Origin: Escherichia phage vB_EcoM-Pr121LW
Length of the DNA: 64,000 nucleotides
Strand: one strand, 5' to 3'
Sequence record: MH752840.1
The notes beneath the pieces are model-generated. The model was not told where the DNA came from and did not search any database. It saw nothing but the letters and a program-made list of their open reading frames with translations. The position numbers and the translations under genes are program-made. Below, piece after piece: positions 16,068-19,366 of the stretch. Every line of letters begins with the position of its first letter. The stretch's first letter is position 1.

Positions 16068-16418
16068 TTACTGCAACAGTTTTTCAATAGCCGCTTCCAT
16101 GCTGCTTGCAACAGCCTGAACTCGGATATTCATCTCTTCTTGGTGGATCAGCTCCTTAAGCTCTTTAATGGTAAATTCTTTAGAGAAACCTTCCACCATA
16201 ATCTTGTGTAAGGCTTCTTGCGTGTCTACTTGCAAGAACTTTTCCAGTTTGTTGGCAGAGGCTTCTAAATCAGCCCGAATACGAGGGTCATCTGTGCGAT
16301 TCAGCATTAGGCGTAAGCCATCAAGATTAGTAGAAATAGCGTCTGCATGTTGAGTAACTAACCGTGGCAAAATGAGATCTACAAACTTATTAGCCAAATC
16401 GATACGTTCTTGTGTCAC
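16068..16418 (-). CDS. hypothetical protein (GTG start)
   Basis: ORF. Confidence 0.35.
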   Translation of the reverse strand: MTQERIDLANKFVDLILPRLVTQHADAISTNLDGLRLMLNRTDDPRIRADLEASANKLEKFLQVDTQEALHKIMVEGFSKEFTIKELKELIHQEEMNIRVQAVASSMEAAIEKLLQ

Positions 16419-16528
16419 TGTTGCACCCCCTCTTCATCCTCATGATGTTTCTTTTCCCGCTTGTGTTTTTTCTTAAGCTCAAGCGCAATTTCTTTTTTGT
16501 ACGCCTTCTTCAAGGCTTTTTTAGCCAT
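16415..16528 (-). CDS. small lysine-rich protein, 37 aa (MAKKALKKAYKKEIALELKKKHKREKKHHEDEEGVQQ)
   Basis: AGGAGG 6 nt upstream of ATG; stop overlaps GTG start of downstream gene (GTGA). Confidence 0.3.
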   Translation of the reverse strand: MAKKALKKAYKKEIALELKKKHKREKKHHEDEEGVQQ

Positions 16529-16592
16529 TTGGCACCTCCTCTGCTTTCATTTTACGATAATTATACCTATCTAAACAAAGCTTTGTCAACAG

Positions 16593-17066
16593 CTAGTCTA
16601 CCTGAACCCAACCGCCTGATACTTTTTTAAACATTCTTTGGTTATCACTGCCTCGGAACGGTTTCTTGGTTGGTAAATCTTTTACATACTTACCGTCAAT
16701 GATGATATCAGCCAGTTTAAGAACATCACTAGAGATATGGTCAAATGTGAACCCAGTATATACAAGAATAGTTTTCTTGTCACCAAATTTTTCCTTAATT
16801 TTCTCCATCAGGCTAATAATATCTGGCTCATTATAGTATGCTAAGGGTTCTCCACCCAGCAGAGAGATACCGCACACAGACGGGTTATCTAAATCTGACA
16901 AGATTTTTTGCAAGTCTTCTTCAGTAAACTCTCTCCCCTTATCTTTTGACCAAAATGCCTGATTAAAGCAACCAGGGCAAGCGTGTGGGCACCCAGATAC
17001 CCATAAGGCAGTTCTAATACCTGGCCCTTCGGTGTAAGATATTTCTGTGTATCCGACAATATTCAT
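16593..17066 (-). CDS. nrdG: anaerobic ribonucleotide reductase activating protein (radical SAM)
   Basis: CPHACPGC cysteine cluster near N-terminus; directly downstream of nrdD. Confidence 0.8.
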   Translation of the reverse strand: MNIVGYTEISYTEGPGIRTALWVSGCPHACPGCFNQAFWSKDKGREFTEEDLQKILSDLDNPSVCGISLLGGEPLAYYNEPDIISLMEKIKEKFGDKKTILVYTGFTFDHISSDVLKLADIIIDGKYVKDLPTKKPFRGSDNQRMFKKVSGGWVQVD

Positions 17067-17179
17067 AGATACTCCGCATCACATTCAGGGCAATGCCAAA
17101 TAAAATCGTCCAGTGCCTTGCACCAACGAAGATTGCAACGACAACCACACTTGCAAATTTTATAAATACCTGTAGACAT
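17063..17179 (-). CDS. small cysteine-rich protein, 38 aa (MSTGIYKICKCGCRCNLRWCKALDDFIWHCPECDAEYL), putative zinc ribbon
   Basis: GGAGG RBS; stop overlaps nrdG ATG (ATGA); 8 Cys in 38 aa; below the track length cut-off. Confidence 0.4.
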   Translation of the reverse strand: MSTGIYKICKCGCRCNLRWCKALDDFIWHCPECDAEYL

Positions 17180-17242
17180 ACTGTACCTCCTAGCTCACTG
17201 TGTGTCAATAATATGCCACATCCTTGTGGCTTTTGTCAAGTA

Positions 17243-19366
17243 TCAGCAACCACAACTTCCGTAGTGCTTAACCCGTTCTATAACTTCCGCTTGCTTACCT
17301 TTATTGTAAGGACGGGAGTTTGGACTAGACAGGTACCCGGATACACGTCTGATCACACTGATCGTTCCCTCTTCATGGTTTCCACACTCTGGGCATACAA
17401 AGCCTTTAGCTGTTGCACTGAACTCACCAGAAAAACCACACTTGAGACATTTATCCACAGGCTGGTTGATACCAAAATACATAATGTGTTTATATCCGAA
17501 ATCAACAAGAGCTTCCAAAGCATCTAAGTTGTTTTTCAGATTTGGTGTCTCTACGTATCCGATGTTGCCACCAGAGGAGATCATAGCAAAACCTTCCTCA
17601 TACTCCCACTTATCAAAAGGAGAGCTATTGATCCATACTGGCTGATGGAAACTGTTGGTGAGATATTCATGCTCGTGCTTCAACACTTCAGGATATTCAC
17701 GATCCAGACAGGTTGCAGCTTTATAGCATAGACTCTCAGAAGGGGTGCCGTACAAGCTAAACGCTAGTCTACTTTCCTTCTTGTATCGCTCACAAACATC
17801 TCTCATGTGCTGGAGTATTCCAAGAGCTAAAGCCTTGTCACCCTCCCTGCCCAAAATCTGACAGGTTTCATACACACCAATATACCCAATACTGATGGAA
17901 GCGTACCCGTCATAGAAGAGTTTATCAATACTCTCTTCAGGATCCAGGCGAGCAAGAGCGCCTTCACACCACATGATTGGGTTCTGCCCTGCCTTTGTTC
18001 CTTTTAGACGGTTAACCCTTACAAGGTGAGCCTCGTATGCAAGATCCAGGTATTCGTCAAGAACTGCAAAGAAATCAACACCTTCCGTTTTAGCTTTTGC
18101 CGCAATCATTGGCAGGTTAAGGCTAACAACGCCTAAGTTAAATCTACCAAGGTATTTCTCCTCGCCTGTTTCCAAGTCATTGTATTTGCTAAGAAAACTC
18201 CGGCAACCCATGCTCGTTACTTTACCATCTGTCGAGCCTGTCACTTTACGATTTAGTGGAACAGAAACAAAGTCAGGATAAATCCGCTCTGCAGAGCATT
18301 CCAGAGCTAATCGTTTCAAATCATAGTTAGGATCTCCAGGGTTCATGTTGACACCCTCTTCTAGGAAGAACAGCACTTTAGGGAACACAGGTGTGATACG
18401 TTCTTCACCAAGACCCATTTTGTGGACTTTCAAGTAGTTTTTGGTAATCATTCTACCAAAGACCGAGGTATCCAGTCCTAAACTTAATGTGATGAATGGA
18501 GTTTGCCCGTTGACAGAGGTTAACGTATTGATTTGATAGAGCAAAGTCTGCATGCTGTCAAATACGTCTTTATCTGTCATTTGCATTGCAACAGTCTCAG
18601 CATCTGGCAACCAATGTTCCTGGCAAAATTTAAGGTTCTTCTCATAGGTTGCTTCAGCATACTGTGCCAGATAATGATCAATATGGCTCATAGTCTGACC
18701 TCCATATTGAGCACTAGCTACTGCACTAGAGATTTGGCTAAGGATTGTTGTTGCAACCCCTATTGACTTCGGCTTACTGACATGGGCGTTGCCAATGTTG
18801 AATCCGTTTTCCAACATATCTGGATAATTTACCAAACAACAGTTTGTTAACGGACTGATCAAGTAGTCAAGATCATGCACATGGATGAAGCCTTTATTGT
18901 GCTCTTCTGAGACACGGTCTGGCAGGATCTGTGTTGATGCAAGGTGTTTGCTAAGGATGCCTGCAAGCAGGTCACGATGAGTGTGTACATGATTGGTAGG
19001 CTTATTTGCGTTTTCTTTTGTAAATTCATCACAAGTGCGATCCAAGAAGCCACTAATATCTGCAAGCAGTTTTCCACCTGCCTCTCTGTTATTATCTCTT
19101 GTCTGCCTATACTGGATGTATTCTCTGGCTGCGCATTTTAAACCCATATCCATAAGAGCGTCTTCAACAAGGATATGGATATTTTTTACAGAGATCGTGC
19201 ACTGGTCGGTTGGTAGATTGTTAGCAACAACTTCATTAACCGCGCAGGCGATCCGGTAAGCTTCTTCTTCAGTATGTCCAGACTCAAGTAAGGCGGACTC
19301 TGCCGCCTTGATCACCTTAATTCCGTTATAGACCTCTTCTCTACCGTCCCGTTTTACAACTTTCAC
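17243..19366 (-). CDS. nrdD: anaerobic ribonucleoside-triphosphate reductase (class III)
   Basis: 707 aa; C-terminal glycyl-radical region RRVSGYL and C-terminal Cys cluster. Confidence 0.9.
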   Translation of the reverse strand: MKVVKRDGREEVYNGIKVIKAAESALLESGHTEEEAYRIACAVNEVVANNLPTDQCTISVKNIHILVEDALMDMGLKCAAREYIQYRQTRDNNREAGGKLLADISGFLDRTCDEFTKENANKPTNHVHTHRDLLAGILSKHLASTQILPDRVSEEHNKGFIHVHDLDYLISPLTNCCLVNYPDMLENGFNIGNAHVSKPKSIGVATTILSQISSAVASAQYGGQTMSHIDHYLAQYAEATYEKNLKFCQEHWLPDAETVAMQMTDKDVFDSMQTLLYQINTLTSVNGQTPFITLSLGLDTSVFGRMITKNYLKVHKMGLGEERITPVFPKVLFFLEEGVNMNPGDPNYDLKRLALECSAERIYPDFVSVPLNRKVTGSTDGKVTSMGCRSFLSKYNDLETGEEKYLGRFNLGVVSLNLPMIAAKAKTEGVDFFAVLDEYLDLAYEAHLVRVNRLKGTKAGQNPIMWCEGALARLDPEESIDKLFYDGYASISIGYIGVYETCQILGREGDKALALGILQHMRDVCERYKKESRLAFSLYGTPSESLCYKAATCLDREYPEVLKHEHEYLTNSFHQPVWINSSPFDKWEYEEGFAMISSGGNIGYVETPNLKNNLDALEALVDFGYKHIMYFGINQPVDKCLKCGFSGEFSATAKGFVCPECGNHEEGTISVIRRVSGYLSSPNSRPYNKGKQAEVIERVKHYGSCGC

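Follow-up and report, generated by a model that had tools for sequence, protein, structure and literature searches.

The small open reading frame (ORF) between nrdD and nrdG in this phage DNA is a genuine gene, judged by how its codons vary among relatives, and its protein is under strong purifying selection. We think it likely that the gene is a portable accessory of the early nucleotide and DNA-metabolism module, encoding a small metal-binding protein, and not a dedicated subunit of the reductase. It is already known, being annotated in the nearest relatives and catalogued as PHROG 20137.

Gene order and translation signals

The initial annotation had described a 38-aa ORF at 17063-17179, a GGAGG ribosome-binding site in front of it, a stop codon overlapping the nrdG start, and nrdD and nrdG as its neighbours. 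All of these readings were borne out in the window (the whole 64,000-nucleotide stretch of DNA that was analysed), the identities of the two neighbours by both Pfam and PHROG. The features are:

17063..17179, minus strand: small Cys7 protein gene, 38 aa (ORF and translation, PHROG 20137, pN/pS)
17186..17191, minus strand: Shine-Dalgarno sequence AGGAGG, 6 nt before the small-ORF ATG (sequence reading)
17063..17066, minus strand: ATGA overlap of the small-ORF TGA and the nrdG ATG (termination-reinitiation coupling)
17072..17075, minus strand: ribosome-binding site of nrdG itself, GGAG, inside the end of the small ORF and 5 nt upstream of the nrdG ATG (sequence reading)
16593..17066, minus strand: nrdG, radical-SAM activase, downstream coupled gene (Pfam Fer4_12, E=9e-43; PHROG 626)
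17243..19366, minus strand: nrdD, class III ribonucleotide reductase (RNR) catalytic subunit, upstream gene (Pfam NRDD, E=7e-161; Gly_radical; ATP-cone)
17215..17230, minus strand: hairpin GCCACA-AGGA-TGTGGC in the spacer between nrdD and the small ORF (-9.3 kcal/mol; terminator-like, with a weak U tract)
17210..17239, minus strand: putative sigma-70-like promoter match TTGACA-18-CATATT (consensus scan, 10/12), overlapping the hairpin

Translation from the ATG at 17179 gives a product of 38 codons, MSTGIYKICKCGCRCNLRWCKALDDFIWHCPECDAEYL, which includes the peptide ALDDFIWHCPECDAEYL. It contains one histidine and seven cysteines (positions 9, 11, 13, 15, 20, 30 and 33), not the eight cysteines first claimed. 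The length of the small ORF alone is not significant, because the window holds 194 ATG-initiated ORFs of 30-60 aa; its seven cysteines are the maximum among these 194. A search for paralogues in the 64-kb window found none.

Coupling to both neighbours had also been proposed, and the nrdG side of this proposal stood. There, the nrdG start shares bases with the small-ORF stop codon. Ribosomes that finish the small ORF can thereby reinitiate on nrdG, and in the window this overlap probably feeds ribosomes to nrdG. The Murica record annotates a ribosome-binding site for nrdG at the position equivalent to window 17072..17075, within the small ORF. On the nrdD side, by contrast, coupling is lacking: there is a gap of 63 nt with a hairpin and promoter-like hexamers, which could together form a partial terminator and, for the small ORF and nrdG, an internal promoter. 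Of two related loci, L004 carries a compensatory version of the spacer hairpin and L003 a different, stronger one. A glutaredoxin gene lies upstream of nrdD. At the other end of the cluster, a perfect sigma-70 consensus (TTGACA-18-TATAAT, 12/12) is found at 16560-16589 (minus strand) immediately past nrdG, at the position of the promoter annotated as P118 in rV5. Past this match, at 16415-16528 (minus strand), is a very basic 37-aa ORF, MAKKALKKAYKKEIALELKKKHKREKKHHEDEEGVQQ, the positional equivalent of rV5 gp113.

The small ORF is conserved as a protein

Conservation of the reading frame in related phages had been named as a check on the ORF, and it was found: the ORF is intact in 120 of 121 related phage records. 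For a coding test, the small ORF was taken from 23 related loci plus the window, which gave 15 distinct nucleotide versions of a 29-codon core. Variable sites at codon positions 1, 2 and 3 number 9, 4 and 22, respectively (chi-square p=6e-4), and pooled pN/pS is 0.109 in the small-ORF frame compared to 1.10 and 1.95 in the other two same-strand frames. Both patterns imply selection at the level of the protein. In deep pairs, synonymous divergence is near saturation and the protein is hardly altered, as in the window and L003 copies (pS 0.775, pN 0.048; Fisher p=4e-9). Twenty-four positions of the protein are invariant, all seven cysteines among them. A Shine-Dalgarno motif stands at proper spacing in every lineage (AGGAGG, TAGGAG, AAGGAG, GAGGTG or GAGGAT), and the site is retained in four lineages whose upstream DNA is unrelated. 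A literature search found no transcriptomic, proteomic or ribosome-profiling data for the small ORF in these phages, and it receives no discussion in the rV5 paper (PMC3606486).

Rare disrupted versions were seen at L014 1001-1186 and L029 652-840. The copy in phage Alma reads through to 61 aa; the simplest cause is that one extra nucleotide, which may be a sequencing error, stands ahead of the last three codons. In one 1.5-kb metagenome contig, the first 21 residues of the small protein are fused to a gp111-like C-terminus, possibly by deletion or as an assembly chimera.

Two other readings of this stretch would do without the protein. It could be a cis element, as implied by the terminator that the Murica record annotates inside the small ORF and by a weak hairpin at 17110-17126, or a leader ORF that only delivers ribosomes downstream, which would agree with its ATGA coupling to two unrelated downstream genes (nrdG and DNA ligase). 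However, the annotated terminator is a weak, G-U-rich hairpin whose pairing is not preserved in L003; substitutions fall on third codon positions and do not preserve the stem, which in L003 consists almost wholly of G-U pairs; the region matches nothing in Rfam, and its folding is no more stable than that of shuffled sequence (z=-0.37); and conservation of the peptide (pN/pS 0.11) extends to rV5 and L004, where the ORF is uncoupled. We consider this reading very improbable. Still harder to credit is that the real gene is an overlapping frame, either the one annotated as rV5 gp109 (75-78 aa) or an antisense ORF of 144 aa at 17093..17527. The rV5 RefSeq record does annotate gp109 (YP_002003611.1, a 75-aa 'hypothetical protein' at L002 3436-3663; same frame at 17014-17208 of the window, minus strand), and both the gp109-frame and antisense ORFs are open in the window. 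Against this, the other two same-strand frames show pN/pS above 1, the gp109 frame is closed across the small-ORF stretch in phage ACG-C91, and in rV5, where the DNA is nearly identical, the antisense ORF is broken into two pieces. From these substitution ratios and the closed frame in ACG-C91, gp109 is probably a wrong-frame call.

Annotation and family membership

The region is 98.7% identical in DNA to Escherichia phage JES2013, its closest relative, and 96-99% identical to ≈120 other rV5-like phages of the genus Vequintavirus. Eighteen or 19 'Campylobacter phage' records (MG065644-MG065682) are 96-98% identical to E. coli Vequintavirus over the region and are probably mislabelled or contaminant assemblies. 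PHROG 20137 (a 38-position HMM) matches the small protein with E=2.3e-31, residues 1-38 aligning to profile positions 1-38, and divergent members of the family also match it (E~1e-22). The ORF had been described as unannotated. This is true of some records, such as Mangalyan, PDX, FV3 and Murica, and rV5 has the different overlapping frame, gp109, called in its place, but the small CDS is already called in JES2013 (P766_gp108, YP_008530353.1), JEP1, SophiaRose, Alma and A51.2 (UniProt A0A9E7SGM6), besides its entry in PHROG 20137. P766_gp108 and A0A9E7SGM6 are the same protein as the one in the window (97% identity), in the same slot between nrdD and nrdG.

PHROG 20137 and RefSeq name the protein 'ribonucleotide reductase'. 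The window protein has no Pfam family match at E<=1 and no RNR domain, three relatives have no family match at E<=10, and neither NrdD (PF13597, glycyl radical) nor NrdG (radical SAM) came up as a homologue in searches of Pfam and NCBIfam. The name is without a basis in homology and appears to have been copied from the neighbouring genes; some records give the small ORF its neighbour's name. PHROG 13972, which resembles an ORF beside the ligase gene of phage K1E, is labelled 'DNA ligase', and in both PHROGs neighbour labels seem to have bled onto tiny zinc-ribbon ORFs. Across Pfam, NCBIfam and a PDB sequence profile, the small protein drew only sub-threshold zinc-ribbon noise. No Pfam match to rubredoxin was obtained (E<=1 for the window protein, E<=10 for the three relatives); rubredoxin is ~50-54 aa with CxxCG ... 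CPxCG knuckles and a conserved aromatic core, compared to 38 aa and 18 residues between knuckles in the small protein. The Lar-type (PF14354) and Com family models of Pfam did not match the V5-type protein either, and a Lar-family model in BFVD matched without significance (E=0.53).

The family comprises proteins of 36-54 aa and was found only in coliphages, namely Vequintavirus and relatives plus a few ACG-C91-like podophages of the genus Vectrevirus. A word-indexed search of 5.8 billion proteins returned six clusters and nothing beyond the small-protein family. Besides family members, an exhaustive HMMER profile search covering 1.84 billion representatives returned just a fusion (P0009) and two repeat proteins that are spurious (P0008 and P0010), and scans of IMG/VR, metagenomes and GTDB genomes added no phage groups to the same two. 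One apparent member, L023, was rejected as a false positive on a high-GC bacterial contig.

Linkage to nrdD and exchange of nrdG

In all Vequintavirus-type genomes examined, the small ORF lies between nrdD and nrdG, immediately 3' of nrdD or of an endonuclease gene inserted there. Its conservation tracks that of NrdD, far above that of NrdG: between the window and L003 or L004, which belong to the more distant relatives, the small protein is 80-86% identical, NrdD 71-87%, NrdG 48-52% and PhoH 49-50%. At least two nrdG cassettes occur within Vequintavirus. Window-type NrdG proteins are >=93% identical, and the window-type and L003-type nrdG genes are both ATGA-coupled (-4 overlap) to the small ORF. 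In rV5-type genomes, nrdG lies 189-384 nt from the small ORF, which ends in TAA, and the extra small ORFs gp110 and gp111 stand between them. This cassette polymorphism was compared at window 16593-17066 and rV5 L002 3618-4475. The boundary of the cassette falls exactly at the small-ORF stop codon, because NrdD, the small ORF, a gp114-like protein and PhoH are 97-100% identical between the window and rV5, and NrdG only 53.5%. The small protein stays 80-97% identical while the three NrdG alleles that accompany it share only ~50% identity. The small ORF is thus coupled to nrdG in most Vequintavirus-type genomes examined and uncoupled in those of the rV5 type. We infer that the coupling is a local arrangement and not a defining one. 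It is not conserved, and nrdG also has a GGAG of its own (17072-17075).

The junction of nrdD and the small ORF is also a hot spot for homing endonucleases. In SophiaRose and JEP1, a gene with DUF723/DUF4379 repeats and a T5orf172/MUG113 nuclease lies between the two; ORFs that are putatively of the same kind occupy this position in nom and Mangalyan. Hot-spot genes are at L012 279-1439, L013 13-948, L017 to 952 and L027 1388-2548. In other relatives, an HNH gene splits nrdD. The tripeptide 'GIY' at residues 4-6 of the small protein was considered as a GIY-YIG remnant and rejected; other lineages read GGF, GFK or VFK there.

A second context in podophages

ACG-C91 and at least four metagenomic SP6-like contigs (44-45 kb) carry a 36-aa copy that is 77% identical to the small protein of the window. 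This copy lies between the genes for a nucleotide kinase (DUF3310) and DNA ligase and is ATGA-coupled to the ligase gene. The complete ACG-C91 genome contains no nrdD and no nrdG. Compared to other Vectrevirus genomes, the flanks of the ligase slot are constant and the ORF body alone is replaced. Three alternative occupants of the kinase-ligase slot have identical flanks and all overlap the ligase start by 4 nt:

ACG-C91: Cys7 gene
K1E: gene for a 38-aa C4 zinc ribbon
vB_EcoP_B: gene for a 57-aa cysteine-free protein

The three were read at L024 699-815, L025 699-872 and L001 3998-4108, given here by locus and not in the order above. The K1E ribbon (MTCPNCGSEE...) shares with the Cys7 gene its slot, length and ATGA coupling to ligase, and its CxxC-x18-CxxC spacing is that of the longer V5-type variants. 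It differs in having four cysteines and a very acidic pI of 4.1, compared to seven cysteines and a pI of 5.4-8.6 for the V5-type protein. Homology between the K1E-type and V5-type occupants is not detectable, as hhalign aligns a single knuckle only.

The initial annotation had suggested, solely from the position of the ORF, that it may encode an accessory of the anaerobic RNR. A dedicated class III accessory would bind NrdD or NrdG, whether as a rubredoxin-like electron carrier, as an activase chaperone or by acting on the host NrdDG where the phage lacks its own. In favour are the invariable place between nrdD and nrdG in Vequintavirus-type genomes, the coupling to nrdG in most of them, conservation that parallels that of NrdD, and the CPxC and CxxCG knuckles of the family, which resemble those of the rubredoxin type. 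Yet co-occurrence with nrdD and nrdG, as expected of a class III RNR component, does not extend to the small ORF: ~2,141 phage records have an NrdG homologue, compared to ~120 with the small ORF. In phi92, nrdG overlaps nrdD directly with no ORF between, and from the phi92 annotation this can be deduced for PVP-SE1 as well. The small ORF is uncoupled from nrdG in rV5-type genomes, its product is nearly unchanged across three divergent NrdG alleles, it is present and coupled to ligase in the RNR-less ACG-C91, and it matches no rubredoxin or other Pfam family even at E<=10. The gene is kept intact while its neighbours change, and its ORF body has passed between unrelated phages as a unit; this is a misfit for a dedicated NrdG partner and fits an NrdD partner only weakly. 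We therefore regard a dedicated accessory as unlikely; a link to NrdD is conceivable, because the small gene stays 3' of nrdD (or of the inserted endonuclease) and its conservation tracks that of NrdD (71-87%). More doubtful still is that the gene is a domesticated fragment of an adjacent zinc module, either the DUF723/DUF4379-T5orf172 homing-endonuclease repeat or the C-terminal ribbon of NrdD. Endonuclease genes with repeats such as 'IICKHCG...GCPEC' do stand directly upstream of the small ORF in SophiaRose and JEP1, and one repeat is 29% identical to the small ORF over 31 columns. The NrdD ribbon, a Zn(Cys)4 module at window residues ~638-663 with CxxCG ... CPECG knuckles, is encoded 200 nt upstream of the small ORF. 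However, hhalign scores are 20.4 and 19.7 for endonuclease repeats and 20.4 for the NrdD ribbon, with probabilities of 4-7%. Only generic cysteine knuckles match, because these scores are equal at such probabilities. The NrdD ribbon aligns with the small protein in its knuckles alone (hhalign probability 3.8%), with a spacing of 14 residues compared to 18, and the Pfam DUF4379 and DUF723 repeat models do not match the small ORF at E<=10. All comparisons give the same knuckle-level score, which leaves an origin from either module unproven.

Predicted structure

The first cysteine motif of the window protein is C9-x-C11 and the second, which is invariant, is C30-P-E-C33. Three longer relatives (P0004, P0005 and P0007) have one extra residue in the first motif, giving C-x2-C-G-C-x-C-N-L-R-W-C ... 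C-P-x-C, with CxxC and CPxC knuckles 18 residues apart. This is the arrangement of a zinc ribbon, in which two Cys-x2-Cys-type knuckles lie ~15-20 residues apart, with CxC as the first knuckle in the window version. AlphaFold2 models, built on a family alignment of only seven sequences, have a mean pLDDT of 66.6 for the window protein and 76.1 for a CxxC variant (~82-85 at residues 10-40), and both place the same short strands in the same order and seem to set the two knuckles at hairpin turns. The best PDB fold matches are zinc ribbons (Rpb9, the N-terminal ribbon of a Nudix protein, ZifS, HVO_0758 and topoisomerase I), none of them statistically significant. In a viral structure library, the sole significant match was the small protein itself.

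These models make a single zinc ribbon a reasonable prediction for the fold, as distinct from demonstrated class membership. The 'zinc ribbon' of the initial annotation accordingly stands as a generic fold type and not as assignment to a family. In the predicted fold, C9-x-C11 (CxxC in the longer relatives) and C30-P-x-C33 would together hold one Zn. C13, C15 and C20 would lie on or beside the central beta-strand, where they might coordinate another metal or provide a contact to a partner.

Function and comparison with known systems

Our preferred reading, a portable accessory gene of the nucleotide and DNA-metabolism module, suggests that the product most likely works as a small binding module stabilised by metal. 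A myophage with nrdDG and a podophage without them should both offer its target, which would thus be host-encoded or generic rather than NrdG. As a long shot, the Cys7 protein may be a portable cofactor protein with Zn or Fe-S as its metal, which would raise the supply of dNTPs under anaerobic conditions by acting on a glycyl-radical or radical-SAM system that phage and host have in common (NrdD/NrdG, for instance). If this were true, it would explain both the retention of the gene in a 137-kb myophage and a 44-kb podophage among gut coliphages and the conservation of the small protein in step with NrdD.

The finding itself adds little, as the gene had been called in the nearest relatives and in PHROG 20137. 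The useful corrections are that the 'ribonucleotide reductase' name is baseless by homology, that rV5 gp109 is probably a call in the wrong frame, and that coupling to nrdG is one of several arrangements. What emerges is an uncharacterised and unusually conserved small protein that gives no pointer to a new kind of system. With seven invariant cysteines in 38 residues and movement between unrelated coliphages, it is a cheap candidate for a screen of small-protein function.

Two known kinds of protein invite comparison. Stand-alone zinc ribbons, such as the CPxCG protein HVO_0758 of Haloferax, ZifS of Thermus and the Rpb9/TFIIS-type ribbons, resemble the small protein in size and in having two cysteine knuckles that include CPxC; they provide its best fold matches, and it may share their three-stranded ribbon. 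Pfam and NCBIfam matches to these families were all under threshold, and unlike these ribbons the small protein has three additional invariant cysteines and, in the window version, a CxC first knuckle. The Com protein of phage Mu, a small zinc finger that activates translation, is encoded immediately in front of mom. Searches for a relation of this type found no Com-family match in Pfam and no conserved target hairpin. Like Com, the small protein is tiny and (by prediction here) zinc-binding, and its gene lies directly upstream of the next gene and overlaps it. Unlike the case of Com, the gene downstream of the small ORF varies, being nrdG, the ligase gene or gp110.
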